This document shows positions 13,844 to 30,628 of a stretch of 64,000 bases of DNA, piece after piece; within the stretch, counting starts at the first letter, position 1; every line of letters starts with the position of its first letter. Where the stretch lies: positions 116,975-180,974 of the forward strand of contig CAIMDB010000035.1 of the NCBI GenBank assembly GCA_903839675.1, in the 5' to 3' direction. The notes under the pieces were generated by a model, which had not been told where the DNA came from, did not search any database, and was given only the letters and a program-made list of their open reading frames with translations. Position numbers and translations under genes: made by a program. The DNA is from an uncultured Sphingomonadales bacterium (GTDB lineage: Bacteria > Pseudomonadota > Alphaproteobacteria > Sphingomonadales > Sphingomonadaceae).

Positions 13844-15419
13844 CGGCGGTCTCCTCGTCGGCGAACCAGTGTGCACGGGCTGCCATGATGATCTCGTTGC
13901 CTTGCTCTTCCGACAGGGCATAATCTGAAAGCACGCCGCCGCGGGCTTCAGTGGTGTTGGTGCGGTTACGACGACCTTCATCGCGACGCTTGCGCTCAAC
14001 CAGTTCGTCGGTGGCAAGATCAGCCAGATCGTCGAGCGTCTTGATGCCGGCCTTGCCGAGCGTGACGAGCATCGCTTCGGTCAGATGCGGCAATTCAGCC
14101 AGAGCGTCTTCAACGCCCAAAGCCTGACGAGCCTCACGGTTGGCGATTTCGCGACGATCCAGCGATTCCTGCGCACGCTCCTGAAGTTCGGACGCGATTT
14201 CATCGTCCAGACCTTCGATGGAGGCGATTTCATCCGGCTGGACGTAGGCGATTTCTTCCATCGTGCTGAAGCCTTCGGCCACCAGCAGCTGGGCGAGCGT
14301 TTCATCAACGTCGAGTTCCTGCTGGAACATTTCCGACTTCTCGATGAATTCGCGCTGACGCTTCTCGCTCGAATCCGTCTCGGTCATGATGTCGATGGCC
14401 GAGGCCGTCAGGATCGAGGCGAGACGCACATTCTGGCCGCGACGACCGATGGCGAGGGAGAGCTGATCGTCAGGCACGACGACTTCGATGCGCTCTTCTT
14501 CTTCATCGATCAGCACGCGGCTGACGGTAGCGGGCTGGAGCGCGTTCACCACGAAGGTCGCCATGTCGGTCGACCAGGGAATGATGTCGATCTTTTCGCC
14601 CTGAAGTTCCTGCACAACCGCCTGAACGCGGCTGCCCTTCATGCCGACGCAGGCACCGACCGGATCGATGGAACCGTCATGGCTGATGACGCCAATCTTG
14701 GCGCGGCTTCCGGGATCACGGGCGCAGGCCTTGATCTCGATAACGCCGTCGTAAATTTCCGGCACTTCCTGTGCGAACAGCTTGCGCATGAAATCAGGAT
14801 GCGCGCGGCTCAGGAAAATCTGCGGTCCACGGTTTTCACGGCGGACATTGAAGATGAGCGCGCGGACGCGGTCATTAATGCGGAGCACTTCGCGCGGGAT
14901 CTGCTGATCGCGGCGGATAACGCCTTCGGCACGACCAAGATCAACCACGACATGGCCGAACTCAACGCGCTTGACGACGCCGGTGATGATTTCACCCGCA
15001 CGGTCCTTAAACTCTTCAAACTGACGCTCACGCTCAGCATCGCGGACCTTCTGGAAGATCACCTGCTTGGCGGCCTGAGCCGCGATGCGGCCGAACTCAA
15101 TCGGGGGCAGCGGATCAACAATGAAGTCACCAAGCGCGGCGCCCGGCTGCAGCTTCTGGCCGTCCTTCAGGCTGACCTGCTTGAAATAGTCATCTACTTC
15201 TTCAACGACTTCAACGACGCGCCACAGGCGCATGTCGCCGGACGTCGAATCGATCTTCGCGCGGATGTCATTTTCAGCACCATACCGTGCACGGGCGGCA
15301 CGCTGGATGGCGTCTTCCATCGCCTCAAGCACGATCGCCTTGTCGATCAGCTTTTCGCGGGCAACCGCGTCGGCAATAGCAAGAAGCTCAGCCTTATTGG
15401 CAGAGACGGCGTTGGACAT
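13824..15419 (-). CDS. nusA: Transcription termination/antitermination factor NusA
   Basis: FGRIAAQAAKQVI, ARDPGSRAKI, VGACVGMKGSRVQAV, AIGRRGQNVRLA. Confidence 0.98.
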   Translation of the reverse strand: MSNAVSANKAELLAIADAVAREKLIDKAIVLEAMEDAIQRAARARYGAENDIRAKIDSTSGDMRLWRVVEVVEEVDDYFKQVSLKDGQKLQPGAALGDFIVDPLPPIEFGRIAAQAAKQVIFQKVRDAERERQFEEFKDRAGEIITGVVKRVEFGHVVVDLGRAEGVIRRDQQIPREVLRINDRVRALIFNVRRENRGPQIFLSRAHPDFMRKLFAQEVPEIYDGVIEIKACARDPGSRAKIGVISHDGSIDPVGACVGMKGSRVQAVVQELQGEKIDIIPWSTDMATFVVNALQPATVSRVLIDEEEERIEVVVPDDQLSLAIGRRGQNVRLASILTASAIDIMTETDSSEKRQREFIEKSEMFQQELDVDETLAQLLVAEGFSTMEEIAYVQPDEIASIEGLDDEIASELQERAQESLDRREIANREARQALGVEDALAELPHLTEAMLVTLGKAGIKTLDDLADLATDELVERKRRDEGRRNRTNTTEARGGVLSDYALSEEQGNEIIMAARAHWFADEETADAGTSA

Positions 15420-15424
15420 GGGTC

Positions 15425-15952
15425 TTACCTTTCCACAGAAATGACGTCCGCACCCTCGGAAGAGAGCGGCGCGGTGGCTTTGATGAGCGCATCGGTCAGC
15501 AACAACTTGCCAGTACCGATCACGGAATAGGGTATGCGCACTGTTTCGCGCGTTTTCGACGTGATGATGACAATCACATCATTTTCCAGCTCGCAAAGAC
15601 GGCCTTCGACCTGCTTGCGGCCTTCAAAACCGTCTGGAATGCGCACGCGGGCATCAAAGCCCTTCCAGTCGGCATAATCTTCCAGCCGGGTGAGCGGACG
15701 GTCAATGCCGGGGGAGCTGACTTCCAGCCGATAGGCTTCCTCAATGGGGTCAAGCTCGTCGAACAAGTCGGATATGGCGCGTGACAGGGCGGCGCAGTCC
15801 TCGATGACCAGCTGGCGCGTGTCGGGCCGTTCGGCCATCACCTGCAGCGTGGGGTCGGTCGTGCCGCCGAACATCTTGACGCGCACAAGCCGCAACCCCT
15901 GAGCATCCGCCAGAGGTTCTATGAGTGCTGTCAATGCGGCGATATCCGCCAT
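15425..15952 (-). CDS. rimP: Ribosome maturation factor RimP
   Basis: IEDCAALSR, YRLEVSSPGIDRPL; first gene of the nusA-infB operon. Confidence 0.96.
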   Translation of the reverse strand: MADIAALTALIEPLADAQGLRLVRVKMFGGTTDPTLQVMAERPDTRQLVIEDCAALSRAISDLFDELDPIEEAYRLEVSSPGIDRPLTRLEDYADWKGFDARVRIPDGFEGRKQVEGRLCELENDVIVIITSKTRETVRIPYSVIGTGKLLLTDALIKATAPLSSEGADVISVER

Positions 15953-16218
15953 CGGGTCTCCGTCAATTTGGTCGCGTAAAAAACAATGCAGTCTCGGCGC
16001 CGGAACCGGTTGGTTCCGACCTCAACATTTATAACGATGTCGAGAAGACAATGGCTCTATAGCCTGCCGCGCGCCGGACGGCAAGCAGAGTCTCACCCGC
16101 CCGATATGCTGGCATGCGGACCAATCCCTAAGGCCAGCGCACTCAAATAAAACCTCCATAATCACGCTTTATTAATCCAATTTGGTTTTAATGGATTTTG
16201 CGAACAGTGGGGGTTCGA

Positions 16219-16542
16219 ATGTCTATCACAAGTCCTATTGCTGAAGACCGCAGAGAACCGCGTTGGCCGGTGTCGATGCCGTGCAAGCTGCGCTGGACGA
16301 ACGGCCTCAAAATGGATGCCGAAGTGATTGACATCACATCGGTGGGCTGCCGCGTACGTTACACTGGCCCGTCGCCGCGCTGCGGGTATCTGCTCTTGTC
16401 CTTCGGCAACTATAATTCTTTCGACGCAGAGATTGTCTGGGCAAAGGACGGCGAAGCGGGAATGGCTTTCCGCCCCGCCCTTCATGCCGCTGTGCTGGAC
16501 CATATCGTCCGCGCAAACCCTGCAGCCGAGCCAGACGCCTAA
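16219..16542 (+). CDS. Stand-alone PilZ domain protein
   Basis: RREPRWPV (RxxxR) and IDITSVGCRV (DxSxxG-like), AEIVWAKDGEAGMAF. Confidence 0.8.
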   Translation: MSITSPIAEDRREPRWPVSMPCKLRWTNGLKMDAEVIDITSVGCRVRYTGPSPRCGYLLLSFGNYNSFDAEIVWAKDGEAGMAFRPALHAAVLDHIVRANPAAEPDA

Positions 16543-16588
16543 ATCCCCTTCCGCCTATCCTTTGACGACCCGCCGCAATCGCGATAGG

Positions 16589-16603
16589 GAACATAAAAGG
16601 AAC
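16589..16603 (+). promoter_or_regulatory. Alphaproteobacterial LexA (SOS) box GAAC-N7-GAAC
   Basis: GAAC-ataaaag-GAAC, 20 nt upstream of the dinB ATG. Confidence 0.8.
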
Positions 16604-16622
16604 GATTGAACCGGCGGGAAGA

Positions 16623-17714
16623 ATGGACGAGGCGCACATCCGAAAGGTGATCCATATCGACATGGACGCCTTTTTTGCGTCGGTCGAACAGCGTGATGCG
16701 CCAGAACTTCGCGGAAAGCCTGTTGCGGTCGGCGGCGGCGGCGCCCGGGGAGTTGTGGCGGCGGCCAGTTATGAAGCCCGCACCTTCGGCGTCCGGTCTG
16801 CCATGCCTTCGGCCCGCGCACGGCGCCTTTGCCCCGACCTGATCTTCGTGCCCCCTCGCTTTGAAGTCTATCGGCACGTGTCCGGCCAGATCAGAGACAT
16901 TTTCCTGTCTTGGACGCCCCTCGTCCAGCCACTGAGCCTCGATGAAGCCTATCTGGACGTCACTGAAAACCTGAAGGGCGAACCATCCGCCACACGCATC
17001 GCCGAGGCCATCCGCGCCCAGATCAAGGCGAAGACGTCCCTCACGGCATCGGCAGGCGTGTCTTACAACAAGTTCCTCGCCAAAATCGCCTCAGACATGG
17101 ACAAGCCCGACGGGCTCTATGTCATCAAACCTGCACAGGGCGCGGACTTTGTGGCCGCGCTGCCGGTGCGCAAATTCCATGGGGTCGGCCCCGCGACAGC
17201 GGCGAAAATGGAAGGCTATGGCATCATCACCGGAGAAGATTTGCGCGCCCGCAGCCTAGATTTCCTGCAGCTCAAGTTCGGTAAAGCAGGCCATTATTAT
17301 TATTGGGCGGCGCGCGGCATCGATAACCGACCGGTCAATCCCAATCAGGAACGCAAATCCATTGGCAGCGAAACAACGTTCCGAAGCGACCTGACGACCT
17401 ATGAAGCGTGCATGGCGGAACTGCATGGGCTTATCGAAACAGTCTCGCGCCTTTGCAGCCGTCGCGATCTTGCGGGAAAAACGGTCACACTCAAACTCCG
17501 CTATGCCGATTTTCGCACCGTCACCCGCAGCCGCACGGTTTCCCGCCCGGTCAGCGATGCCGATACCATTCGCGACATTGTGGCGCTGCTGTTGAACGGG
17601 TTGATGCCATTGCCGCAGGGTGTGCGGCTGCTGGGGATCACTCTTTCAGGCTTTTCCGACTCGCGTCCGGACGCCCAAGCCCCCCAGTCTGGACTGTTCG
17701 GTCCAGAACTTTAG
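16623..17714 (+). CDS. dinB: DNA polymerase IV (Y family)
   Basis: IHIDMDAFFASVEQR, AASYEARTFGVRSAMP, LSLDEAYLD, NKFLAKIASD. Confidence 0.96.
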   Translation: MDEAHIRKVIHIDMDAFFASVEQRDAPELRGKPVAVGGGGARGVVAAASYEARTFGVRSAMPSARARRLCPDLIFVPPRFEVYRHVSGQIRDIFLSWTPLVQPLSLDEAYLDVTENLKGEPSATRIAEAIRAQIKAKTSLTASAGVSYNKFLAKIASDMDKPDGLYVIKPAQGADFVAALPVRKFHGVGPATAAKMEGYGIITGEDLRARSLDFLQLKFGKAGHYYYWAARGIDNRPVNPNQERKSIGSETTFRSDLTTYEACMAELHGLIETVSRLCSRRDLAGKTVTLKLRYADFRTVTRSRTVSRPVSDADTIRDIVALLLNGLMPLPQGVRLLGITLSGFSDSRPDAQAPQSGLFGPEL

Positions 17715-17859
17715 GGGCAGCGCCCAACTTTCGATGCCAAAATGACAGGACATGATTTTGACCAAGGCCCAGAAACATAGCCGCTTTCACGGTTAACCGA
17801 CCCTTTCCTATCGCAACGACGCCAAACTGGCATCGCTTCCGGTTGAGCGCGCGGAGCCG

Positions 17860-17928
17860 ATGACAGACGTTAAACCTCTGAACGTGGTTTTCCACGCTCG
17901 GGTCGCACAAACTTGTCACTACGCATAA
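17860..17928 (+). CDS. Candidate 22-aa small ORF (MTDVKPLNVVFHARVAQTCHYA)
   Basis: GGAG 4 nt before ATG, TAA 10 nt before a strong terminator; below ORF-track cut-off. Confidence 0.25.
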   Translation: MTDVKPLNVVFHARVAQTCHYA

Positions 17929-17938
17929 TGACAGTCAT

Positions 17939-17975
17939 GACGCAGGTGGACCCGCTCCACCTGCGTCCTTTTTTT
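17939..17975 (+). terminator. Strong Rho-independent terminator
   Basis: Perfect 12-bp stem gacgcaggtgga-cccgc-tccacctgcgtc followed by c and T7. Confidence 0.85.
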
Positions 17976-17998
17976 GGGCTCGCCCGAAGGGTTCAGAG

Positions 17999-18235
17999 AT
18001 GACACGCAAATCCATCGGCCTTCACAGAATAGCTGAACGCGCGACAATGCTGGATTTTGTTCACCTTGCTGCGATTATCAGCTGCTCGGCATGGACCGCC
18101 ACGCTCATCATCGAGGATCGTTTTGGTTCCGTTCAAACGGCCGCAGTGGAAATAATGCACGGCTTGCAGGCGGCCCCAGAAGGCCCAAGCCTCACCATCC
18201 GGCTAGACGAAGTTGGCAGATCTGCCGCGCGCTGA
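17999..18235 (+). CDS. Small hypothetical protein with one hydrophobic segment
   Basis: 78-aa ORF filling the gap before the convergent REC-REC gene; segment FVHLAAIISCSAWTATLII; no family recognised. Confidence 0.3.
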   Translation: MTRKSIGLHRIAERATMLDFVHLAAIISCSAWTATLIIEDRFGSVQTAAVEIMHGLQAAPEGPSLTIRLDEVGRSAAR

Positions 18236-18246
18236 AGCGCGGCACG

Positions 18247-19059
18247 TCAAAGCCCGTTTGCAAAGCTCACAATATCGGCGATCCGTGCGGGCTTAGACAG
18301 GCAGCCTGTTGGCATGATCGGCAGAGCGGAAATCTCTCCGGCATCAGGCGTGCGGCCACTCAGCACCAGAAACTTGATATGACGGGCGGCCAATTCTGGA
18401 TCTTGGGCAACCCGACGGATCAAATCCAGCCCGCTTTCCGTGCCCAGCCCCAGGTCAACCAGCGCACCCTTTAGCGATGGATATTCCCGCAGCTTGGCAA
18501 GGGCTGCATCGACCGTGCCAGCGCAGGCAGCAACATGTCCGAAGCTGTCGAACAACTCTGCCATCTCTTCAGCAAGGTCGGCTTCGTCTTCGACCACCAA
18601 AATGGCAGGCGCATCAGTTGCAACCGATGCCGTTCGCATAGCTGAGGCAGGAGGGACATCAGCTGCGGCTTGTACCGTCACCCGCGTCTCGACGCCTGAG
18701 AGATTTCGCTCAATAGCAGCCAACAATTCATCAAACGACACTGGCTTGATCAGGCATTCCTTCGCGCCAAGGCTGCGCAGCGTTTCAATCGTTTCATGGT
18801 CGCCATAGGCCGTCATCATGATCATGATCGGAGATGCGATGCGCGAGCTGCGCACCGCCTTCAGGATGCCAATGCCGCCAAGGCTGGGCAACTGAACGTC
18901 GCACACCACAAGGCGCGGGCGATAGAGTTCAATAGCGGCAATCGCCTCTCCGCCATCGCCCCGGTCGAGCACATCATATCCATCGCCCTGCAGCAGATCG
19001 ACAAGATCGAGCCGGAGAGCTTCTTCGTCCTCAACGATGAGGATGCGGGCGTCGGTCAT
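18247..19059 (-). CDS. Tandem receiver (REC-REC) response regulator without output domain
   Basis: ILIVEDE...CDVQLP...MTAYG...IKPV, then ILVVEDE...VDLGLG...LSG...SKPA; both Asp and Lys sites are intact. Confidence 0.88.
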   Translation of the reverse strand: MTDARILIVEDEEALRLDLVDLLQGDGYDVLDRGDGGEAIAAIELYRPRLVVCDVQLPSLGGIGILKAVRSSRIASPIMIMMTAYGDHETIETLRSLGAKECLIKPVSFDELLAAIERNLSGVETRVTVQAAADVPPASAMRTASVATDAPAILVVEDEADLAEEMAELFDSFGHVAACAGTVDAALAKLREYPSLKGALVDLGLGTESGLDLIRRVAQDPELAARHIKFLVLSGRTPDAGEISALPIMPTGCLSKPARIADIVSFANGL

Positions 19060-21254
19060 TCTGTCACCTCTTCGGTACGCTTATCTTCTGGGCGCTTGGA
19101 CTTGCGCGATGCACCGGCAAGACGGAAGCGGAGGAACACGCAGGTGCCGCCATCCTCTCCATCTGCCACACGGATTTCGCCCCGGTTTGTGGTCGCAAAG
19201 ACACTGGCCAGATGCAGGCCAATGCCAGACCCCGTGGTGCCGGTCGCGTTGGCTCCGCGATAAAAACGTTCAAAAATGTGCGGCTTATCTTCTTCCGCAA
19301 TGCCACTGCCATAGTCTGTCACGGTTATAATCGCGTTGAACTGCTTGCGTTCAACACGGACATCAATCGGCTTTTCAGGCGGCGAATATTTTTCCGCATT
19401 TTCAAGGACCGCAATCAGCGTCAGGCGCATCAGTTCTTGGTCAGCAAGAACGACAAGTTCGGGTTCTGCAAAAACATTGAAGGCGCGATCCACTCCGGTC
19501 GCTTTGAATTCATTGCAAACTTCGACAATCAATTTGCCGAGGTCAACCGCCGCCATCGGCGCTTTGCCCTTGCCGCTATCAATGTCCAGAAGACGAACAA
19601 GACGCGTCAGCAGGCCTGCAATTCGCCCGGTTGATCGGCGCATCTTTTGGGCGCGCTCAATAACGCCTGTCGGTTCCAAACTGCTCGCCCGGCGTTCCAG
19701 AATTTGCGCGCTGGAATCAATGACGGCAAGCGGTGTACGGATTTCGTGGCTCATGACGCGCATGAAGCGGCGTTGGGTTTCGTTGGCTTCACGTTCCTTT
19801 TCAAGCGCTGCCGCCACGAGCTTTTCCTGCGCTTGGCTGCGGGCTTCGGCCGCAGACAGCTTCCTGTGGACATCCATCAGATGCATGCCGAACCGGTCAA
19901 TCTCTTCGACTTGCGACCCGCTGAATTCTGGGTCTTTCCCGCCGCGCGTCATAGTTTCGACCACGCCGGACAATTGTTCGAGCGGCTGAGCGACGACATG
20001 GCTCATCCGGCGCGACCGCACATAGAGGAATGCGAAGTAGCCGAGATAGAAGAGCACGAGGATCACCAACATGATGACGGTTGCCCGCGTATATTGTGCA
20101 CGCAGATTGTCGGCCGTCTGGTTGATGTTGGTTTCGTTGCCAACAACGATAAGATGCCAGGCCGGGCCGTCTACTTGAGCAAAAGCGGCGATACGCTCTG
20201 ATCCGCCGAGTTTGAAATGGACGTAGCCGCGCCCCTTGTCGAACACCGCCTTGCCAAGTGCCCGGGTATCTTCCCGCTTCAACAGGTTGAACTGACCAGG
20301 CTTGAAGGTGTTCTTCGCAATTGCCTTGGCATAGCTGTGGTCCGTGAGTTCGCGGACGCCAAGGTCCTTTTCCCCCGACGGTTGCAGAGCAATGATTGTG
20401 CCATCGCGCCCGACGAGCATTGCGTAAGCATTCCAAGGCAGATCTGTTGCCAGAAGATGGTCGACGATAGACCGGATCGTGACATCAATGCCGACCACGC
20501 CTTCGAGGCGGTTGCCGATATAGACCGGCGCAATGGAGGAGACCATCCAGCCCTGCCCTGCTGGGTCGATATAGGCGTCGGTCCAGACCGATTTGCGTTT
20601 GGGATTATGAGCTGAATCCGCCTCAAAATAAAAATTGAAGGACGGGATGTTCATGCGCGCGGGATAAGTCGACGTATCGATATACGGGTAGATGCGGTTG
20701 TAGCTGTCAAACGTGTTGAAATAGACTTGGGACACCAGCGGATTGCTGTTCTTGATATCGGCCATCAATGGGTCGAGCCGTTGCGTCCGCCAGACCTTTG
20801 CCAGCGCCGCGTCATCAATCGGCACGATACCACTGAAGTAGGACGCCGTCGTTCCGTTGTCTCTTGTGGTTCGGAACGCGCCATTTTTATCGAACACAAA
20901 ACGCGACCGTTCTGCCCCCGTCGGCGTCGCCTCCGTCAGAAGGGCGCTGCGCGTCTGCAGCGCAAAGATGGACGTCATGTTCATAACGCCGCGCAGTGTT
21001 TCTGAAATGGTCGTCGCCTCACGCGTGGCGATGTCTTCAAGGTAGCTGTGCGATATTTCCTGCACTGTGTTGATATTGGTGTCGTAGCTGAGCCGGCCGC
21101 TGAACCAGAAGACGGTGAGGAAGCTTATTTCGATGACCAGCAGCGGGATCACGGCCGACCGGAAAAGCGCGCGCCAGAACCAGTCCTGGAGCGAAACCCG
21201 CGCCTCTGAGATGCTGCCCTTGTTCAATCGACTTTCCCACCGGTGCTGCGGCAC
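19056..21254 (-). CDS. Membrane sensor histidine kinase (TM-dCache-TM-HAMP-HisKA-HATPase)
   Basis: Two TM helices flanking a Cache region (VWTDAYIDP...SSIAPVY...GVVGIDV); H-box MSHEIRTPL, N-box LENAEKYS, DYGSGI, IFERFYRG, GSGIGL; start uncertain (21335/21254/21227). Confidence 0.9.
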   Translation of the reverse strand: MPQHRWESRLNKGSISEARVSLQDWFWRALFRSAVIPLLVIEISFLTVFWFSGRLSYDTNINTVQEISHSYLEDIATREATTISETLRGVMNMTSIFALQTRSALLTEATPTGAERSRFVFDKNGAFRTTRDNGTTASYFSGIVPIDDAALAKVWRTQRLDPLMADIKNSNPLVSQVYFNTFDSYNRIYPYIDTSTYPARMNIPSFNFYFEADSAHNPKRKSVWTDAYIDPAGQGWMVSSIAPVYIGNRLEGVVGIDVTIRSIVDHLLATDLPWNAYAMLVGRDGTIIALQPSGEKDLGVRELTDHSYAKAIAKNTFKPGQFNLLKREDTRALGKAVFDKGRGYVHFKLGGSERIAAFAQVDGPAWHLIVVGNETNINQTADNLRAQYTRATVIMLVILVLFYLGYFAFLYVRSRRMSHVVAQPLEQLSGVVETMTRGGKDPEFSGSQVEEIDRFGMHLMDVHRKLSAAEARSQAQEKLVAAALEKEREANETQRRFMRVMSHEIRTPLAVIDSSAQILERRASSLEPTGVIERAQKMRRSTGRIAGLLTRLVRLLDIDSGKGKAPMAAVDLGKLIVEVCNEFKATGVDRAFNVFAEPELVVLADQELMRLTLIAVLENAEKYSPPEKPIDVRVERKQFNAIITVTDYGSGIAEEDKPHIFERFYRGANATGTTGSGIGLHLASVFATTNRGEIRVADGEDGGTCVFLRFRLAGASRKSKRPEDKRTEEVTE

Positions 21255-21368
21255 CCCAAATTCTTTGATGTTAACGGCAGCAAACGCCCACCCTTCACAC
21301 CTTGCCATGCCGGCCAAAACCACTGCGGATGGCAAACTGGTTCATAGCATGGCGGGGTCACCAAAGTC

Positions 21369-21383
21369 TTAACATTGCTTTAA
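21369..21383. promoter_or_regulatory. CtrA-type full site TTAA-N7-TTAA
   Basis: TTAA-cattgct-TTAA in the divergent spacer between the two halves of the signalling cassette. Confidence 0.65.
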
Positions 21384-21549
21384 GGGAGGTGTGCCAAATT
21401 ACTGCAAACTGGCACTATCTCCGTTTCGCCAAAGATCCAAAAGCCAGTAACTCCTAAGGAATCGGGTCCGTTCTAGGGAGTGGAGATCGGACCACGATGA
21501 GACAGATCGCGTCCAGGCGATCAATTTACGGTGGGGTGAACAGGACGTT

Positions 21550-22455
21550 ATGTTGAAAGAAACTATCAAGCCCTCTCAGGAGATGGCGCTCAATATCCTT
21601 CTTGTTGATGACGATAAGGATCTGCTTGTCGAGCAGGCGGACCTCCTTGATGCGTTGGGCTATAGCTGCCGGACCGCAACCTCTGCTGAAGAAGCCAAGG
21701 TCGTCTTCAACGGGCACCACGACATCAATTTGGTCATTTCCGATTGGTCACTTCCTTCGGGAAATGGCCTTGATTTGATCAAATCTCTCGGTGAAATGAA
21801 CCGGAATGGCCGCAATTTTGTCGGCATTTTGTTGACGGGCTACCCCTCAATCGAACTCGCCGTGCAGGCGATGCAGGATGGATTCGTCGACTTCCTGAGC
21901 AAGCCTGTTTCCCGCGAAATGTACGAGGCCGCTTTAAACCGCGCCAGCGAACGGTTGGCCGGGCAGGCGCAGGCAAATTCGGACACCAAGGTCGTCGAAT
22001 CGGTCGCGAGCATTCAGGAATCCCTGAACGCGCTGATGGGCAAGCTGGGTCTTCAGGATAAAGAAGCGACGACATCTGATGAAGATGTGGCCGCATCGAT
22101 CCGGAACCCGAATTCGGTGCATCCTGCCGTCCTCAAATCGATCATCAAGGCGCGCCGCAACCGGCAGAAGTATTTCGAAGGCGACCTGTTCTCCGATCCT
22201 TCGTGGGACATCCTTCTGGAACTGACGGCAGCGCACGTTGAAAACCGTCAGGAATCGGTCACAAGCGTCGCGATCGCGGCGTCAGTGCCCGCCTCCACCG
22301 CCATCCGCAAGATCCGCGAACTTTCCGATCGCGGCCTGCTCAAGCGCTGGACGGATCCAACCGACGCCCGCCGGATCTTTGTTGCGTTGACCGAGGATGC
22401 ATCAAAGCGGATGCTTGCGATGCTCGCCAGCGCCGAGAACGCGCCAATCATCTGA
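21550..22455 (+). CDS. Response regulator, REC fused to MarR-like winged-helix domain
   Basis: ILLVDDD...SDWSLP...LTGY...SKPV; C-terminal LFSDPSWDILLEL...VPASTAIRKIREL...DPTDARRIFVALT. Confidence 0.85.
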   Translation: MLKETIKPSQEMALNILLVDDDKDLLVEQADLLDALGYSCRTATSAEEAKVVFNGHHDINLVISDWSLPSGNGLDLIKSLGEMNRNGRNFVGILLTGYPSIELAVQAMQDGFVDFLSKPVSREMYEAALNRASERLAGQAQANSDTKVVESVASIQESLNALMGKLGLQDKEATTSDEDVAASIRNPNSVHPAVLKSIIKARRNRQKYFEGDLFSDPSWDILLELTAAHVENRQESVTSVAIAASVPASTAIRKIRELSDRGLLKRWTDPTDARRIFVALTEDASKRMLAMLASAENAPII

Positions 22456-22462
22456 CGATCTG

Positions 22463-23689
22463 ATGGGCGCAACGCGAAAGCAGGATAACAGGACAGCCAT
22501 CGGCCAGCAGGCGCCGGTGTCTGTCCTGCTGCGCGAATTTCGCGCGCTCATCACCCAGCGGATCCGGCAGTTGACCGGCATCCCCACCCGAAGCGAGCGC
22601 CTGACACTCAGCACCATCCGCGAGATGCATAGCGCAGGCGCCGTGGTTGCCGGGCAGGATGTCCGCTGGGATCCTGTGCGTGAACGCCTCAGCATGACGG
22701 TTCGGGATGAAGGGGGGGTTCCCCATATCGCCGAATGGACCATCCGCGGCGTTGATGCGCGGACCTTTGAGGATTCCCGCTCAGATCAACTCGTGGCAAA
22801 CTGCTTTTGGGCGGAAACCCCTGCTGGCCCAAGATGGTGTGGACTATTTGCCAGCGGAAATATGGGCCCGGGCCAGTGGCGCTCCGGCAGCGTGGTCGAA
22901 ATGCGCCGCGCCGAAGGGCGACGGGATGCGCCGCGCGATGACAGGCTGACGCAGTTGGGGGCTATGGCCTCAACCTTAAGTCATGAGCTCAAGCAGCCGC
23001 TGGCCACCATCGCGTTTGCTGCGGAAAACGGCAAGTTGCGGCTCGTCGGGCAGACCGACACCCGCAGCGAAAAGGCGCTCGAAAAGTTCGACAAGATCCT
23101 TGAACAGGTGGAGCGCGCACGGAACATCACAGGCAAGATGCTGGCCCATGCCAAGGCGGAGGTTGACGCCAATGCCGAGTTTGATCTGGAAGCTGCCATC
23201 CGCGCCGCCCAGTCGCAAGCCGCAGGCCTCCTCGTGCGCGACGACATTCAATATGGCGAAACCGCGATCCCCGAGCATGCGACCATCCTTGGCCTTTCGC
23301 GGCTGTCCTTTGAACTCATCATGCTCAATGGCATCCGAAATGCCGTGCAGGCCATCGCCGAGGCACGCGCCAAACATTTGGTGACGCGCGGGCGGATTGA
23401 TATTGCCGTTAAACGGATCGGCGCCGGCGGCCTTGCGCTGTCCATCATCGATGACGGTGCCGGCATCTCTCCTGATATTGTCGATAAGCTGTTCAGCCCC
23501 TTTGCCACCTCTAAGCAGGGGGAGGAGGGCAACGGCATTGGCCTGCACATGTGCCGCCAATTGGTCGAGAAGGTCGGCGGAACGCTGGACCTTGTGTCCA
23601 ACCCTGATGCACGCGGCGCACGGCTGGTGATGACCTTCCCGGAAAGCGCGGTGCGTTTCACGTCGCTTGGCAGCTGGCAGCAAAGCTAA
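22463..23689 (+). CDS. Soluble sensor histidine kinase (NtrB/DctB-like core) with unrecognised N-terminal region
   Basis: LGAMASTLSHELKQPL, NGIRNAVQA, DDGAGI, LFSPFATSK, GNGIGL; no TM segment. Confidence 0.88.
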   Translation: MGATRKQDNRTAIGQQAPVSVLLREFRALITQRIRQLTGIPTRSERLTLSTIREMHSAGAVVAGQDVRWDPVRERLSMTVRDEGGVPHIAEWTIRGVDARTFEDSRSDQLVANCFWAETPAGPRWCGLFASGNMGPGQWRSGSVVEMRRAEGRRDAPRDDRLTQLGAMASTLSHELKQPLATIAFAAENGKLRLVGQTDTRSEKALEKFDKILEQVERARNITGKMLAHAKAEVDANAEFDLEAAIRAAQSQAAGLLVRDDIQYGETAIPEHATILGLSRLSFELIMLNGIRNAVQAIAEARAKHLVTRGRIDIAVKRIGAGGLALSIIDDGAGISPDIVDKLFSPFATSKQGEEGNGIGLHMCRQLVEKVGGTLDLVSNPDARGARLVMTFPESAVRFTSLGSWQQS

Positions 23690-23801
23690 GCCACCAGAAA
23701 CGAAATCTGCCGCCAATCGCGGTGGCACTCCCGACGGCAAGATGGCATATCACCTGTTCACTGCGCCCGTGCGATGGCGCGCCAAGTGGAGGATAGATGA
23801 T

Positions 23802-24710
23802 ATGGCCGACCAACCCGATCCAGCGAACAACCAGCCACCGGGCTATGTCCCGCCCAAGGTCTGGGTCTGGGATACGGCCAATGGTGGCGCGTTTGCGAAC
23901 ATCAACCGGCCCATTTCCGGCGCGACACACGACAAGGAGCTGCCGATCGGCAAGCATCCCTTGCAGCTCTATTCCATGGGCACGCCCAATGGCGTCAAGG
24001 TCACGATCATGCTCGAGGAGCTGCTCGCCCTCGGTGTCAGCGAGGCGGAATATGACGCCTGGATGATCATGATCGGAACGGGAGACCAGTTCGGCAGCGA
24101 CTTTGTGGCGATCAATCCGAACTCGAAAATCCCGGCGATGATGGACCATTCGGTCAGCCCGCCCGTCCGCCTGTTCGAAAGCGGCTCGATGCTCTTCTAC
24201 CTTGCGGAAAAGTTCGGCCATTTCCTGCCGACCGAAACGCACAAGCGCGCTGAGACGATGAACTGGCTAATGTGGCAAATGGCATCGGCACCTTATGTCG
24301 GTGGCGGCCTTGGCCATTTCTACGCTTATGCGCCGTTCAAGATGCAATATCCGATTGACCGGTTTGCGATGGAAACCAAGCGCCAGCTGCATGTACTCGA
24401 CACACATCTGGCCACAAACAAATATCTGGTCGGCGACGACTATACAATTGCCGATATCGCCATCTGGCCCTGGTATGGCTCCATCATGCGCGAGGCGTAT
24501 AGCGCGCAGGAATTCCTGAATGTGAAGGAATACACCCATCTCGACCGCTGGGTGACTGAGGTCGGCAAGCGCCCCGCCGTCATCCGTGGCCGTATGGTCA
24601 ACCGCACCTTCGGCCAGCCGGAAACCCAGCTGCGCGAACGCCATGACGCGAGCGATTTTGACAATAACCGCGAAGACATGGTCATCGCCCGCGACGGCAA
24701 GCGCATCTGA
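23802..24710 (+). CDS. yghU: Glutathione-dependent disulfide-bond oxidoreductase (GST Nu class)
   Basis: YVPPKVWVW, FANINRPISG, QLYSMGTPNGVKV, NPNSKIPA, LRERHDASDF. Confidence 0.9.
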   Translation: MADQPDPANNQPPGYVPPKVWVWDTANGGAFANINRPISGATHDKELPIGKHPLQLYSMGTPNGVKVTIMLEELLALGVSEAEYDAWMIMIGTGDQFGSDFVAINPNSKIPAMMDHSVSPPVRLFESGSMLFYLAEKFGHFLPTETHKRAETMNWLMWQMASAPYVGGGLGHFYAYAPFKMQYPIDRFAMETKRQLHVLDTHLATNKYLVGDDYTIADIAIWPWYGSIMREAYSAQEFLNVKEYTHLDRWVTEVGKRPAVIRGRMVNRTFGQPETQLRERHDASDFDNNREDMVIARDGKRI

Positions 24711-24738
24711 CTGACGTGCCGCCACCCACACATAAAGA

Positions 24739-24764
24739 CGGCGCCGGAGTTTCCCCCGGCGCCG
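24739..24764. terminator. Hairpin between convergent yghU and TonB receptor
   Basis: cggcgccgg-agtttccc-ccggcgccg 9-bp stem. Confidence 0.55.
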
Positions 24765-24810
24765 CAATTTTCCAAAGCCCCGCTGCCGGGCCTCTGGCAG
24801 GAGAGTTTCT

Positions 24811-27327
24811 TTAAAACTCGAACTTAACCGAAGCCGAGATCGTCCGTCCGGCCACCGAACGGGCAATCGACGTATCGTACGCCCCGTTGGCATCGGTATC
24901 GAACAGGCGGGTCTGATCACCTTCGGTAAAGCCGGCCTTGTTGAACAGGTTGTTCGCGTTGAGCGACAGGCTCAGATTGTCACGCACCTTTACGTTCGCA
25001 AAGGCGGTCACAGTGGCGAAGCCCGGCTGCACGAAGCGGTTTTCAAAGTCGACATAGGACTTGGACGTGCCGTTGACCGCGCCGCCCAGCGTGAAGCGCT
25101 CGGCAAAGGTGTAGGACGCACCAAGGTTATAGACCCAATCTGCCTGACGCTGCGGCTTTAGGCCGTTGCGCGCCGGATCATTAAAGTCCTGCTTGGCCTG
25201 TGCATCCGTCCAGGCCCCGTTACCGAACAGGTTGAAGCCGCCAATGTCATAGTTGAACTCAAGCTCAACACCGCTCGACGTGTAGATGCCACCGGTTGCA
25301 AGGTTGGTGGTGATCGAGAAGTTGCGCAGGTTTGCCCGGCCGTTGAAGTAGGTCACATAAAGCGAGAGCGATCCGGGGATGGATGCGCTCGTTTCCCGCC
25401 ACTTCACGCCCGCTTCAATCTGGCGGGTTGAGTTGCGGAGCAGGCCGGGTGCCACGATCTGCGCGTTTGAGAACGCCCCGAACTGGCGGTCGAAGTTCCA
25501 GGTCGTGCCGCGGCTGTAGCGGCTGAAAACGGCCAGATCATCGTTGATCTTGTAATTGGCGCCGAACGAGTAAGACGTGCCGGACAGGCTATCCCCAATC
25601 GTGCCGCGTGTGGCCGGATCGTTGATCGGCACGCCGATTTCCGCCGGACCGATGCTGCCATTCTTGTTCACGTCGACATTACGGGCCGAGCTGAACTGCG
25701 CAAAGCCGCTATAGTGCATCGTCTCACGACGCAGCGAACCGTCGAGGTTGATCGCGCCAAATGTCGCGTTCAGGCCACCGTAAACGGCGTCCACATCTGC
25801 CTGCATATCCCAAAGGATGTTGCAGCAGCCGCCGAACGCGCCGTTATAGGTGTAGACACCGGCTTCGGTGAAACCGGGGACGTTGATGATGGCTGCATCA
25901 TCCTGCGTGGACACGAGCATCCGGCCCCAATGCCAGGTCTGCTTGAAGTTCTGGACCATCTTGAAATAGCCAGCCGACGCCGTGATGTCGCCACCCGCTG
26001 TTTCAAACGACTTGGTCACGCGCAGGTCGTTTGCAAAATTGCCCATGTCGTTCAATTCGGTGTCGAACAGGGCGACTTCGGTGATGAGATTGTTGCCCGT
26101 CAGCGCCAGCAGTGATGCCGAGTTTACCGCAGCACCCGCATTCGGGCCATTGAAGAACACAGCCGTCGCGCCGGGGCCAAAATTGGTCGACAGGTAGCGG
26201 TCGGCAGCGTTCGCCGCATGCGTGAACGGCGCGACGAAGCGACCGCTCTGGTTGGCGTAGCGGATCTTGTTGTTGACGGTGAGGCCAGCCCCGAGATCAA
26301 ACTCAAATTCGCCGCCAATGGTCTGCGACTTGGTGTGGATGCCGTCGCGGAGGTTGCTGTTGATCAGGTTACCGCTGGCATCGATAATCGGGAAATTGAT
26401 GAGGTTCGGGCTGTGCAGCGTCTGCGTGGCGGCGTTGAGGCCGGGCAGGCTGTTGGTGAGGACACCCAGCGTCTTGCCGTAATTGGCAGCGCCAGCCGCA
26501 ACCGCTGCAACCGAACCTGCCACTTCGGTGATGCGCACCGTCTGCGGCATGTAGGTCGCGTCTTTCTTGTCGATGACCTGACCATAGATGCGCACGAAGC
26601 CGCCATCGAATTCCTTGGTCAGGCTCGCACGGAATTTGCCACCATCAACCGCATTGAAGCCTGCATTCCGAATGTCGCCGCCAATCTGATAATGGCCGCC
26701 CAAGTGGAAATAGAGATCATCGGCAAGGCTGGCGCCATATTCGGCGTCGACGCGCGTGTCCTTATAGTCCACGCCCTTCATGAACTGGATGCTACCGCCT
26801 TCGGTCTTCCCCGTCTTGTTGATGAGGTTGATGATGGCGCCATTGCCGTTGGTTGTCAGCGTTGCTGCACTACCGCCGCGCACCGATTCAATACGGGCGA
26901 GCGTGGCATCCACCTTCACAAAGCCATCAGCAGGCGCAAAGTTGTGATCGCCGAACAAGAGGACGGGCAGGCCATCTTCCTGAAGCGAGATGAACTGCGC
27001 ACCACCGGTGACGGCGGGAAGGCCGCGGACCTGCATGTTGGAGTTACCGCCGCCGGCCGAAGATTCAGCGCGGATGCCGGGCAAACGACGGAAGATTTCC
27101 GCCGTGCCGCGCGGCGCGACATTGGCCACGCTATCGACATCAAGGGCACTCACCGAGACGCTGGTGTCGAGGCGGTTGGTTGCCTTGGCAACGCCCGTCA
27201 CAACGATCTCAGCGACGCTGGTGTCGGTTTCGTCTGACGCGTCCTGTGCGACGGCGGGCTGCACGGTAAAAGCCGCGACCGCCAGAGTGACGAGCGACGC
27301 GTGCATACGGAATGCGGATTTCTTCAT
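24811..27327 (-). CDS. TonB-dependent receptor, sugar-uptake type
   Basis: Signal peptide (AVA-QD), TonB box EIVVTG, plug motifs VRGLP...QEDGLPV...IESVRGGSA, C-terminal Phe (SVKFEF); GGGGAGAGG RBS; divergent from LacI. Confidence 0.92.
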   Translation of the reverse strand: MKKSAFRMHASLVTLAVAAFTVQPAVAQDASDETDTSVAEIVVTGVAKATNRLDTSVSVSALDVDSVANVAPRGTAEIFRRLPGIRAESSAGGGNSNMQVRGLPAVTGGAQFISLQEDGLPVLLFGDHNFAPADGFVKVDATLARIESVRGGSAATLTTNGNGAIINLINKTGKTEGGSIQFMKGVDYKDTRVDAEYGASLADDLYFHLGGHYQIGGDIRNAGFNAVDGGKFRASLTKEFDGGFVRIYGQVIDKKDATYMPQTVRITEVAGSVAAVAAGAANYGKTLGVLTNSLPGLNAATQTLHSPNLINFPIIDASGNLINSNLRDGIHTKSQTIGGEFEFDLGAGLTVNNKIRYANQSGRFVAPFTHAANAADRYLSTNFGPGATAVFFNGPNAGAAVNSASLLALTGNNLITEVALFDTELNDMGNFANDLRVTKSFETAGGDITASAGYFKMVQNFKQTWHWGRMLVSTQDDAAIINVPGFTEAGVYTYNGAFGGCCNILWDMQADVDAVYGGLNATFGAINLDGSLRRETMHYSGFAQFSSARNVDVNKNGSIGPAEIGVPINDPATRGTIGDSLSGTSYSFGANYKINDDLAVFSRYSRGTTWNFDRQFGAFSNAQIVAPGLLRNSTRQIEAGVKWRETSASIPGSLSLYVTYFNGRANLRNFSITTNLATGGIYTSSGVELEFNYDIGGFNLFGNGAWTDAQAKQDFNDPARNGLKPQRQADWVYNLGASYTFAERFTLGGAVNGTSKSYVDFENRFVQPGFATVTAFANVKVRDNLSLSLNANNLFNKAGFTEGDQTRLFDTDANGAYDTSIARSVAGRTISASVKFEF

Positions 27328-27597: not shown

Positions 27598-28602
27598 ATG
27601 AGCCAGATCAAGACCATGAAGGAACTTGCCGATCTGGCGGGCGTCACCACCGGCACGGTTTCGCGGGCTTTATCCGATTCTCCGCTGATTAGCCCCAAGA
27701 CGCGCGAACGGCTTCAGGCGCTCGCGCGAGAACATGGTTTCAAACCCAATCTGCTCGCCCGCAACCTGCGGACCCAGCGCACCGGCGCCATCGGCGTCCT
27801 CATCCCGCTTGGCCATGAAAAGGGCCAGCACATCTCAGACCCGTTCTTCATCACCATGCTCGGCTACCTCGCGGATGAACTGACCGAGCGCGGCTATGAT
27901 CTGCTGCTGTCCCGCGTCATCCCAGAGGACGAAAACTGGCTCGACCAATATGTCGGCTCCGGCAAGATCGACGGGCTCATCATCATCGGCCAGTCCAACC
28001 AGTCCGAAACGCTGGATGAAGTCGCGGCGCGCTATCGCCCGATGGTCGTTTGGGGCGGACATGCGCCGGGTCAGGCGCATTGCACCGTAGGGTCCGACAA
28101 TATTCTGGGGGGAGAGATGGCCGCCCAGCATCTGATCGACCGGGGCTGCCAACGCATCGCCTTTTTTGGGGACCCGCAGGCACTCGAAATCGCCCAACGC
28201 CTCGAAGGGTGCAAGCGCGCTCTGGCGCGGGCCGGGCTCGCCGACAAGCTCACCGTCTTGCCAGCCCATCTGGTGGCCGAAGCGGCGCACCCGGACATTG
28301 CCGGCTTTCTGGGTTCGGTCAGCGAACGGCCTCAGGGCATTTTCGCCGCGTCAGATGTTATCGCGATGAGCGCGCTACGTGCCTTGGCCGAATATGGCCT
28401 TGCTGTGCCCGGCGACGTGAAGGTTATCGGCTATGACGGCCTTGCCATTGGCGAACAGACCGTGCCGCGGCTGACGAGTATCTCTCAGGACCTCCGCTTG
28501 GGCGCGACAACGATGGTCGATCTGCTGCTGCGGCGGATAGCGGGCGAAGAGGCGGGGTCGGTCGTGCTGGACCCCAGACTGATCGTGCGGATGTCGAGCT
28601 AG
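27598..28602 (+). CDS. LacI-family transcriptional regulator
   Basis: TMKELADLAGVTTGTVSRAL HTH, FKPNLLARNL hinge, periplasmic-binding-fold effector domain. Confidence 0.95.
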   Translation: MSQIKTMKELADLAGVTTGTVSRALSDSPLISPKTRERLQALAREHGFKPNLLARNLRTQRTGAIGVLIPLGHEKGQHISDPFFITMLGYLADELTERGYDLLLSRVIPEDENWLDQYVGSGKIDGLIIIGQSNQSETLDEVAARYRPMVVWGGHAPGQAHCTVGSDNILGGEMAAQHLIDRGCQRIAFFGDPQALEIAQRLEGCKRALARAGLADKLTVLPAHLVAEAAHPDIAGFLGSVSERPQGIFAASDVIAMSALRALAEYGLAVPGDVKVIGYDGLAIGEQTVPRLTSISQDLRLGATTMVDLLLRRIAGEEAGSVVLDPRLIVRMSS

Positions 28603-29468
28603 GCCGAACCGGCAAGCGCGAAGGCACCCATTAGTCCCGCATCTTCTCCAAAGCCGGGGGCCATGACGATGGCGGACGCTTTCCCGACGAAGTAACCCGC
28701 GCCCAAAATGTCTGCCTCACTTTGGACAAGACCAAGCAAGCCCGGTGTCGCCATCACGCCGCCGCCGAAGATGATGCAGTCTGGCTCTAGGATCGCCTGA
28801 AGGTTGCACACGGCTTGGGCGAGATACCAGGCGATCATCTGCTGTTCGGTGCCACCGGATGTCAGTTCGGAAAGGGATTTGCCCCACCGCGCGAGGATGG
28901 CAGGGCCGCTTGCCAATCCTTCCAAACACGCCCCATGGAACGGGCAGGCGCCCGCAAAGCCCGTATCATCGGGATGGCGTGGGAGGCGCATATGCCCCAT
29001 TTCGGGGTGGCTCAGGCCATGCAGGATGCGACCATCCACCACGGCGCCACCGCCGACGCCCGTGCCGATGGTGAGGTAAACGCACAGGCGCTTGCCTCGC
29101 CCGCCCCCCCAGCGCGCTTCGGCAAGGGCGGCACCGTTGACGTCGGTGTCAATTGCGACGGGGCAACCAAAGGCGTCCGCAAAGGGCTGCACAAGATTGG
29201 CACCGCTCCAGCCCGGTTTAGGGGTGCGCGTGATGCTGCCCCAATTGGGCGAGGCCTTATCAAGATCAAGCGGGCCAAAGGCGGCGATGCCGAAGCCCGC
29301 AAAGGGAAGATCATGACTGCGGAACCAGTCACAGGCCGCAGACATCGTCTCGTGCGCGTCCAATGTCGGGATACGGTGGCGCTGGAGGATCGCGCCGTCA
29401 GCGTCGGCGATGCCAAGCACAAACTTGGTGCCGCCCGCCTCAATCAACCCGAAATGCGTTCCGCTCAT
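28599..29468 (-). CDS. ROK-family sugar kinase, probable fructokinase
   Basis: IEAGGTKFV, DTDVNGAALAE, YLTIGTGVGGG, HPEMGH, CPFHGACLEGLASG (fructokinase-type signature). Confidence 0.88.
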   Translation of the reverse strand: MSGTHFGLIEAGGTKFVLGIADADGAILQRHRIPTLDAHETMSAACDWFRSHDLPFAGFGIAAFGPLDLDKASPNWGSITRTPKPGWSGANLVQPFADAFGCPVAIDTDVNGAALAEARWGGGRGKRLCVYLTIGTGVGGGAVVDGRILHGLSHPEMGHMRLPRHPDDTGFAGACPFHGACLEGLASGPAILARWGKSLSELTSGGTEQQMIAWYLAQAVCNLQAILEPDCIIFGGGVMATPGLLGLVQSEADILGAGYFVGKASAIVMAPGFGEDAGLMGAFALAGSA

Positions 29469-30628
29469 TCCGCCTCCGCGCGGACGCTAGCATGATCACC
29501 ATCCAGATGAAGCCGGAATATAGGCGCAGGTCCGCCTGCGAAATGGCGGCGGCGCCAGTCGGGATCATCAACCACGTCATCGGCATCGGACACGCCGATG
29601 AGATCCGCAAAGCCATGAACCGTTAGATCAGACGTCACCCACCAGCTATAGCTTTGGAACGGCGCATCGGCGGGATTGGCGGCGACAAGGCCAGTGCCGT
29701 TCAAGGGACTGAACCGGCCAAGCGGGCTTTTGCCAACAGCACCGTATAAGCCATTGGGGCCAGAAGGGCCGGGCGCAAAGACCTTCCGTTGCGTTGACCA
29801 GAACAGATAGTAACGCCCATCCCGCGCTACCATCACGGGCCGTTCCAGCTCGTTGTTCAGGCCATCGGCAGACAAGACAGGCGGTAAAAGGTCCCAGCTG
29901 TCCTGATAGGCTGAGGCTGCCCGTGCAACGCCAATCACGCCGTTCCAGTCGCTGGTCGAGGATTGAAGCGAGCCGGTGAAAAACAGATAGTCCGCGCCCG
30001 TCGCCGGGTCCCGGAAGTGTGCCGGATCACGAAAGCCTTTGATCGCGCCGGGTAGGCCTTCAATTGCCCCCACGATGACATAGTGATGCCCATCGCTCCG
30101 AACCGACTCCATCGGCTCCGTCCAGCCGACGGTCGAAGCCGTTCCGTCTGTGACCGTCAGTTGCGCGGACAGTTGGAACAGCCGCTGCGCCACCGTCGGC
30201 TTCGGCTCCCCCCGCATTCCGGCTGCCGTGTAAAACAGCGTCAGTCGCCCGCTGGCAGGATCAAACAGAGCCGAGCCCGCCCATTCGCGGCTGCCGGGGT
30301 TGGCGATGTCGGGAAGGAGATTGCCGCAGTCTTTCCAAACGCCATCCTTCTCCGTCACCAAACGGATGCGCGCGCGGTGGTGGCGGGATTCCGGGTCTGG
30401 CTGAAGCGGCGCGGACAGCATGAGCCAAAGTGACCAGCCTTCAAAGCGCGCGGTTGTGCCGTCAACATTCTGGACGGGCCACATGTCCCAAAGATCAAAG
30501 CCGGGAAGGATGTCGACCACATCGGAGCGACGAATATGGGGGATGACGTGCGGCTGCCCTTCTACGATGCGCGCAACGCTATCGGGGAGCCAGACAGATG
30601 TCGGCAAAGTGCCCTGCGCTTCATCCAC
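29465..30628 (-). CDS. Glycoside hydrolase family 68 (levansucrase/invertase-like) without signal peptide
   Basis: Catalytic motifs LWDMWP (nucleophile), EWAGSA, FRDP (stabiliser), ELERP (acid/base). Confidence 0.88.
   Translation of the reverse strand: MDEAQGTLPTSVWLPDSVARIVEGQPHVIPHIRRSDVVDILPGFDLWDMWPVQNVDGTTARFEGWSLWLMLSAPLQPDPESRHHRARIRLVTEKDGVWKDCGNLLPDIANPGSREWAGSALFDPASGRLTLFYTAAGMRGEPKPTVAQRLFQLSAQLTVTDGTASTVGWTEPMESVRSDGHHYVIVGAIEGLPGAIKGFRDPAHFRDPATGADYLFFTGSLQSSTSDWNGVIGVARAASAYQDSWDLLPPVLSADGLNNELERPVMVARDGRYYLFWSTQRKVFAPGPSGPNGLYGAVGKSPLGRFSPLNGTGLVAANPADAPFQSYSWWVTSDLTVHGFADLIGVSDADDVVDDPDWRRRHFAGGPAPIFRLHLDGDHASVRAEAE

Follow-up and report, generated by a model that had tools for sequence, protein, structure and literature searches.

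In Myxococcus xanthus, the RedCDEF proteins constitute a 'four-component' system, in which four genes that lie together encode one circuit (Jagadeesan et al. 2009; PMC2755868). Its parts are a membrane kinase (RedC), a dual receiver without output domain (RedD), a soluble kinase-type protein (RedE) and a response-regulator output (RedF), and RedD hands a phosphoryl group to RedE, which cannot autophosphorylate. This system is the closest precedent of the cassette analysed here, which occupies positions 18247-23689 of a 64,000-nucleotide stretch (hereafter named the window; C35:116975-180974) of the genome of an uncultured bacterium of the genus Chakrabartia (Sphingomonadaceae). Four open reading frames (ORFs), organized as two divergent two-gene operons, encode a membrane histidine kinase (HK1) together with a protein made of two receiver (REC) domains (REC-REC), and a response regulator with a MarR-like DNA-binding domain (REC-MarR) together with a soluble histidine kinase (HK2). 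The cassette is a real, conserved and lineage-restricted four-component signalling module. In a few freshwater sphingomonads its four genes have been retained or lost jointly, and they probably form one sensory circuit of a kind known elsewhere.

The likeness to RedCDEF lies in the same list of parts, encoded together, with the domain content and conserved clustering of a four-component system; the organisms are unrelated and the likeness rests on this parts list, not on orthology. RedE is devoid of autophosphorylation, whereas HK2 keeps all the ATP-binding boxes; a MarR-type DNA-binding domain is carried by the output protein of the cassette but not by RedF, which is just a receiver; RedC is grouped with the NtrB-type kinases and the available text mentions no dCache domain, whereas HK1 combines a dCache domain with a PhoR-like core; and the Red genes are colinear, an arrangement that the cassette shows in some lineages, being divergent in others. 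Another comparison is provided by the H-NOX/HnoK network of Shewanella, which includes HnoB, HnoC and HnoD (Plate and Marletta; PMC12471899, PMC9938897) and in which HnoC binds palindromic sites in target promoters such as that of hnoD (PMC9938897). This network also joins a kinase to several receivers, among them a DNA-binding regulator whose class is unusual, and more distant REC-MarR genes adjoin H-NOX and hybrid-kinase genes. HnoC is of the MerR type and the network has a single kinase; the cassette contains neither H-NOX nor cyclic di-GMP enzymes. Clustered multi-component circuits are also represented in Pseudomonas aeruginosa by Roc/Sad and the four-gene PvrSR/RcsCB cluster (PMC3842833). 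In those systems an accessory receiver that does not bind DNA (REC-EAL) opposes the DNA-binding regulator; the kinases there are hybrids with Hpt, the regulators are of the NarL type and the targets are fimbrial, whereas the window cassette has REC-REC in place of REC-EAL and no adjacent target genes. Dual receivers of the FrzZ family, which are fed by a CheA-type kinase, differ in this respect from REC-REC. Both this REC-REC architecture and REC-MarR (the 'MarR' class) were catalogued in a P2CS-style census (PMC4618731, Table 5). An earlier interpretation made from the nucleotide sequence alone (the sequence-only reading) had not recognised this as a described system. This is right for the module itself, since none of the papers searched describes the four-gene module or the function of a REC-MarR regulator, but not for its kind, which is already known from RedCDEF (PMC2755868), PvrSR/RcsCB (PMC3842833) and the census (PMC4618731).

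Relatives of the regulator were collected at 39 genome loci, tblastn searches were performed with the four cassette proteins and their flanks, and two survey sets were used, consisting of 401 Sphingomonadaceae genomes and 400 other alphaproteobacterial genomes. With a threshold of > 50% identity, HK1 orthologues were present in 6 out of the 401 Sphingomonadaceae genomes, which belong to three genera, and in none of the 400 other alphaproteobacterial genomes. In all six, the contig with HK1 also encodes, within ~7 kb of it, REC-MarR, REC-REC and an HK2-class kinase, and no orthologue of HK1 or REC-REC was detected without REC-MarR in these about 800 genomes. The same four types of parts appear in three gene orders. 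Close Chakrabartia relatives (lineage A; loci L001-L005, L011 and L012) show the divergent layout of the window, flanked by dinB in 7/7 and by yghU wherever the locus reaches it, with the exception of L005. Lineage D, from another genus (L013, L014, which is Aquisediminimonas sediminicola, and L019), has the genes colinear in the order REC-MarR, HK2, HK1 and REC-REC at an unrelated site, with 4-nt overlaps at the regulator/HK2 and HK1/REC-REC junctions. The third order, consisting of an HK2-class membrane PAS kinase followed by HK1, REC-REC and REC-MarR, was found in G036 (L042). Beyond these four genes, the lineages have no conserved neighbour in common. The synteny search thus bears out the self-contained four-gene cassette of the sequence-only reading, with co-occurrence in three genera and three orders, and joint loss.

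This loss was observed in ten loci of lineages B and C (L006-L010, L015-L018 and L020), where the regulator stands alone among the cassette genes; dinB adjoins it in the six loci that reach that far. HK1, HK2 and REC-REC were absent genome-wide from five same-genus (i.e. Chakrabartia) genomes, and HK1 and HK2 from 8/8 tested genomes of the regulator-only lineages, REC-REC having been searched only in the five same-genus genomes. As positive control for these absences, the same thresholds recovered orthologues in other genera. In the maximum-likelihood tree of the regulator, lineage D was sister to the Chakrabartia sequences, and lineages B and C formed a derived clade inside the cassette-bearing Chakrabartia, with C on a long branch. 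The simplest history is that of a four-gene ancestor from which one Chakrabartia sub-lineage lost three genes, and two deletions are needed because the retained regulator sits between HK1/REC-REC and HK2. The receiver of the orphan regulator has changed at its catalytic positions. In lineage B the second acidic residue was replaced (D to Q, N or S; the pocket is DE in L006), and in lineage C the acidic pair has become SA or AA, the Lys has become Leu, and the phospho-acceptor Asp is Asn in three of the four aligned sequences. This decay of the receiver is the strongest evidence in the analysis that phosphorylation of the regulator depends on the cassette's own kinases; it shows, too, that the DNA-binding part is still of use in their absence.

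A crotonase-family gene was located a short distance 3' of the pseudo-receiver regulator, on the same strand, in L008, L009, L010, L015, L017 and L018, and beyond it, in the kinase-less lineages, a katG gene with signal peptide and then a cytochrome c gene. These genes may form an operon regulated by the pseudo-receiver regulator. They were set aside for the window's genome, where katG lies elsewhere and is preceded by a different inverted repeat (TTGGCA-N8-TGCCAA).

The domain content of the four proteins was analysed by Pfam and agrees with the two kinases, three receivers and single DNA-binding output that had been proposed; none of them reached the cut-off of any NCBIfam equivalog. HK1 and HK2 are classical HisKA plus HATPase_c kinases, with both domains above the Pfam cut-offs in each. 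HK1 consists of a first transmembrane segment, a periplasmic dCache_1 domain, a second transmembrane segment, a HAMP-like linker of ~55 amino acids, HisKA and HATPase_c. The dCache_1 domain (57.1 bits; gathering cut-off 45) lies, as expected for an extracytoplasmic sensor, between two hydrophobic segments (residues 19-44 and 377-405) that enclose ~330 periplasmic residues. The description of HK1 as a dCache-HAMP membrane kinase stood for the dCache_1 domain and the two transmembrane segments, but not for HAMP, which was rejected after no match was obtained by Pfam (at E<=1) or by profile search of the PDB sequences; after the second transmembrane segment, a HAMP-like pattern (P-L-x-x-L ... E-E-I-D-x-F) is visible only by eye. 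In the alignment of orthologues the sensor core is strongly conserved across genera, and conservation extends to the intact catalytic boxes (SHEIRTPL as H-box, N, G1, F and G2); an E-x-x-T phosphatase motif follows the His (SHEIRT). The longest HK1 ORF encodes 759 amino acids (19056-21335). As start of the protein the TTG at 21227 is favoured as the most likely one, over 21335, because of where the orthologues begin (~15 residues ahead of the first membrane segment), and therefore the predicted divergent promoter region spans 322 bp. HK2 contains no hydrophobic segments and is organized as a PAS-like domain (~62-146), HisKA with the H-box SHELKQPL, and HATPase_c. Its model (predicted local distance difference test, pLDDT, 64) tentatively shows a PAS-like sheet at residues 62-146, and the top full-length Foldseek match of this model was the LOV-FixL kinase YF1 (4gcz). 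The five boxes (H, N, G1, F and G2) of HK2 are intact and invariant in eight orthologues, so that the intact H, N and G boxes reported for both kinases were upheld. The core of HK1 is PhoR/CreC-like according to its H-box class, and that of HK2 is AtoS/FixL-like.

REC1 of the REC-REC protein (residues 1-120) is canonical, and REC2 (~150-270) is divergent. Among seven orthologues, E10/D11, D54, T83 and K105 of REC1 were invariant; in REC2, D202 and K256 were invariant and the second acidic residue and the Ser varied in another genus. REC2 is less constrained than REC1. The set formed by the acidic pair, Asp, Thr/Ser and Lys was complete in the alignments of all three window receivers, which extends the previous claim that their Asp and Lys residues are intact. 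In a database of 5.8 billion proteins, relatives of REC-REC amount to no more than about 30 clusters. In the regulator, a receiver (residues 15-121) is followed by a long helix (122-165) and, after a disordered linker, by a MarR-like winged helix-turn-helix domain (192-297), the latter appearing in the AlphaFold model (pLDDT 76) as helix, winged helix-turn-helix, wing and helix. The receiver was recognized by Pfam and is nearest to those of FixJ, DctD and NtrX; HTH_27 and MarR gave weak matches under the gathering cut-offs, and no Pfam match to Trans_reg_C (PF00486) was obtained in the 301-residue protein, which places it outside the OmpR/PhoB class. A profile of the C-terminal domain retrieved from the PDB almost exclusively MarR/SarA-type proteins (best E 4.7e-5), to which all the matches with E < 0.001 belong. 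This fits a distant member of the MarR superfamily, not a canonical MarR. Hence, the 'REC-winged-helix regulator' proposed before keeps its receiver and winged helix, and its output domain is best described as distantly MarR-like instead of generic or OmpR-type.

The MarR-like domain by itself defines a far larger family than that of the cassette regulators. The same genome encodes, outside the window, a 313-amino acid paralogue (C35:70896-71837, minus strand) whose N-terminus is a degenerate receiver-like region and which shares the MarR-like domain, including the motif DPAWDMLLDL; crotonase and short-chain dehydrogenase/reductase genes lie downstream of it. Relatives of this paralogue with a degenerate receiver were found in 399 of the 401 Sphingomonadaceae genomes, and the family comprises > 6900 clusters that bear only generic names. 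In another genus (G134 and G278), an HK2-class kinase and REC-MarR are accompanied by an accessory receiver (REC-EAL or a single REC) and HK1 is missing; the G134 set adjoins flagellin and an OmpR-type regulator gene. Sets of kinase, REC-EAL and REC-MarR were also present in relatives from G036 and G134. The larger cluster of G134 (L043; G134:C29:7000-19000) contains REC-EAL, a 768-amino acid membrane kinase, two tandem REC-MarR genes and a single REC gene that overlaps that of a 379-amino acid soluble PAS kinase, with the OmpR-type regulator gene and flagellin beyond. Distant REC-MarR genes in L047 and L021 are divergent from an H-NOX gene and a hybrid histidine kinase, which suggests a nitric-oxide-responsive branch of the family.

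Candidate regulatory elements were sought in the divergent promoter region. Its best conserved block lies at ~21360-21430 in the alignment with the seven relatives that share the layout. The 2.9-Mb genome contains a CtrA gene and only five exact TTAA-N7-TTAA matches, among them the candidate CtrA-type box TTAACATTGCTTTAA; both TTAA halves of this box are invariant in the seven relatives, with the sole varying base in the spacer, and the contexts of the other exact sites were uninformative. The near-palindrome at 21391-21415 recurs at its place in six of the seven relatives, in each as the best 12+12 inverted repeat; its arms match at 11/12 positions in three of them, a value reached by none of 300 shuffles. 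Its right half (GCAAAnTGGC ... TTC) has been kept upstream of the regulator in the kinase-less lineages B and C. MarR-type proteins commonly bind such palindromic sites in their own divergent promoters. REC-MarR would therefore most likely autoregulate both operons via this promoter. Other promoter assignments were discarded: a sigma-54 site suggested by the conserved TGGCAC 5' of the regulator, because the -12 element varies (CCGT, TTGG, TCAT), and an EcfG-type promoter (GGAAC...CGTT), because by eye the spacing is wrong. The genome-wide search with the operator motif in pursuit of a regulon yielded six strict non-cassette matches, all of them in coding sequence or the psp promoter, from which no regulon could be derived. 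This psp region (contig C24, ~27800-29970, outside the window) has pspF divergent from pspABC, a clear sigma-54 promoter (TGGCACGGTCCATGCT) and, upstream, a palindrome (GTGCCACTTTGGTTGCAAAATGGCG) loosely like that of the cassette. At the place equivalent to the leader hairpin of the regulator gene (21465-21493), other lineages have a hairpin that contains CAGGGG; an Rfam scan of 17600-24000 gave zero matches, this hairpin included.

Our interpretation, held with a confidence somewhat above even, is that the four genes are one vertically inherited, lineage-restricted four-component two-component circuit. HK2 and REC-MarR would be its core pair, to which HK1/REC-REC were added as an input arm; this division follows from the sets of the wider family without HK1. 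HK2 is predicted to phosphorylate the receiver of REC-MarR, as suggested by adjacency and translational coupling and by those same sets of HK2-class kinase and REC-MarR, and REC-MarR would be the sole transcriptional output, which by binding the palindrome in its own promoter probably also controls the HK1/REC-REC operon. HK1 would sense a periplasmic small molecule through the dCache domain and phosphorylate REC1, to judge from the coupling of both genes by an ATGA overlap. REC-REC most likely passes the information of HK1 to HK2/REC-MarR by protein contact or phosphotransfer, and would thereby tune the phosphorylation state of REC-MarR. The convergence of both inputs on the regulator that the sequence-only reading proposed, with REC-REC as sink or cross-link, is likewise an inference. 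REC-REC might act by Asp-to-His transfer to HK2 (the route that RedD and RedE use), by binding allosterically, by competing as a sink or by heterodimerisation of receivers. The name 'phosphorelay' used in the sequence-only reading is not supported in the strict sense, since the cassette lacks the components of a His-Asp-His-Asp chain: it contains no Hpt domain or hybrid kinase, and the four Hpt matches of the genome are on other contigs. A Red-like relay without Hpt can be envisaged, in which HK1 phosphorylates REC1 and the dual receiver passes the phosphoryl group to the His of HK2, a fully competent PAS kinase whose DHp domain would act both as relay and as autokinase site, so that periplasmic and cytoplasmic signals would add up at a MarR-type regulator with feedback on the whole cassette. 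We regard this particular wiring as unlikely.

Several observations weigh against the single circuit or parts of it. REC1 is about equally close to NtrC-, OmpR- and RssB-type receivers, which makes the assignment of its partner ambiguous, and receiver class was for this reason rejected as a guide to kinase-receiver partners. The palindrome of the window itself has only 9/12 arm matches, a value reached by 88 out of 300 shuffles and not significant alone; its left arm is absent from the kinase-less lineages, and no second promoter site with the motif was found genome-wide, apart from the loose similarity of the psp promoter. The argument from joint loss is underlain by a single loss event, and the whole function may just have become dispensable, which would not prove cross-wiring. 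Two insulated two-component systems might stand side by side through shared ancestry, with HK2 and REC-MarR as an ordinary transcriptional pair and HK1/REC-REC acting on a non-transcriptional target (a motility, pilus or polarity protein) in the manner of FrzZ or CheY. FrzZ-type dual receivers act through protein contacts, translational coupling ties each kinase of the cassette to a receiver gene of its own, the module of L019 has Flp-pilus genes at a distance of a few kb and flagellin adjoins related REC-MarR genes in G134; dual receivers of the FrzZ family are moreover listed in the census (PMC4618731). Insulation does not account well for the two pairs being found together in three orders and three genera, for the loss of both from either side of a regulator that was kept, for the absence of HK1/REC-REC without REC-MarR from about 800 genomes, or for the lack of any conserved neighbour beyond the four genes. 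We consider it doubtful, although more credible than the other alternatives.

Both kinases could instead phosphorylate REC-MarR directly, with REC-REC as a phosphate sink or buffer that competes for the phosphoryl groups of HK1 and sharpens the response. The colinear order HK1, REC-REC and REC-MarR of G036 is what would follow from HK1 serving both receivers, the His of HK1 is followed by the E-x-x-T phosphatase motif, and in RedCDEF one kinase picks between two receivers. Nevertheless, the differing H-box classes of HK1 and HK2 make a shared receiver less likely, and the receiver of REC-MarR is nearest to FixJ- and NtrC-type receivers; such a many-to-one arrangement is improbable in our opinion. 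The view of the cassette as a mobile island of recent acquisition, unconnected with the physiology of the host, draws on its slightly low GC content (57.8% vs 60.0% in the genome) and its patchy phyletic distribution. However, this GC value, a comparison left pending by the sequence-only reading, corresponds to the 10th percentile of genome windows, which is normal spread and no sign of recent transfer; the regulator tree follows genus structure; the position beside dinB has been kept in all the Chakrabartia lineages whose locus reaches it, the kinase-less ones included; and no integrase, tRNA or repeat boundaries were found among the ORFs of 15000-27000. Horizontal transfer is therefore unsupported by GC content or by the regulator tree, and we attach very little probability to the island.

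The features of the locus are compiled in Table 1. Four ORFs in two divergent two-gene operons, as described in the sequence-only reading, were located at the expected coordinates, and the sequence itself shows both junctions: the stop codon of HK1 overlaps the start codon of REC-REC in the ATGA of GAATGACC (minus strand, 19056-19059), and a 7-nt gap separates the regulator stop from the in-frame ATG of HK2 at 22463 (TGAcgatctgATG, 22453-22465).

Table 1. Coordinates (window numbering) of the cassette genes and of the candidate elements between the two operons.
Feature	Position	Strand	Basis
REC-REC protein, 270 amino acids, no output domain	18247-19059	-	Pfam Response_reg x2
HK1, membrane sensor histidine kinase, 723 amino acids from TTG (most likely start)	19056-21227	-	Pfam, hydrophobicity, orthologue alignment
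Divergent promoter region, 322 bp	21228-21549	no strand	Alignment of 7 same-layout relatives
TTAACATTGCTTTAA, candidate CtrA-type TTAA-N7-TTAA box	21369-21383	no strand	Rarity and conservation
25-bp near-palindrome GTGCCAAATTAC-T-GCAAACTGGCAC, candidate MarR-type operator	21391-21415	no strand	Inverted-repeat comparison
Small hairpin GGTCCGTTCT / AGATCGGACC, regulator-gene leader	21465-21493	+	Repeat search, 10-nt arms, 90% complementary
REC-MarR response regulator, 301 amino acids	21550-22455	+	Pfam, AlphaFold model, PDB profile search
HK2, soluble histidine kinase, 408 amino acids	22463-23689	+	Pfam, model, orthologue alignment

The flanking genes named previously were recognized by Pfam as dinB (IMS domains) on one side and a YghU-like glutathione S-transferase on the other. 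The longest yghU ORF (23667-24710, plus strand) runs over the end of HK2. Its start is probably the ATG at 23802, with no overlap with HK2, to judge from the N-terminus of E. coli YghU; 112 nt separate the end of HK2 from this ATG, and no terminator-like site was found there. On the other side, the dinB terminator (17939-17967) and the REC-REC stop enclose a 78-amino acid ORF (17999-18235, plus strand), which is open in six relatives and diverges much faster than its neighbours (from 82% to 34% identity), and may encode a fast-evolving small protein or be a mere spacer. In lineage D, a conserved protein of ~550 amino acids without Pfam domain is encoded convergently with the module end (L014:13520-15202 and L019:13021-14670), followed in L019 by Flp pilin, RcpC and secretin genes; this neighbour was rejected, since no homologue exists in the window's genome.

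Receiver-MarR regulators form a large alphaproteobacterial family, for no member of which the papers searched describe a function, and the cassette offers a small, self-contained case complete with both kinases. For two-component biology the gain is incremental and not a new principle. A natural control is provided by the sister lineages, which lost the kinases and then the receiver catalytic residues. Since the module is present in the cultured strain Chakrabartia godavariana PRB40 (L003), its wiring, its regulon and the ligand of the dCache domain are directly accessible, and such work would show how an output-less dual receiver couples two kinases. Should the Red-like relay be true, the large (pseudo)receiver-MarR family of the Alphaproteobacteria would have in the cassette its first worked example.

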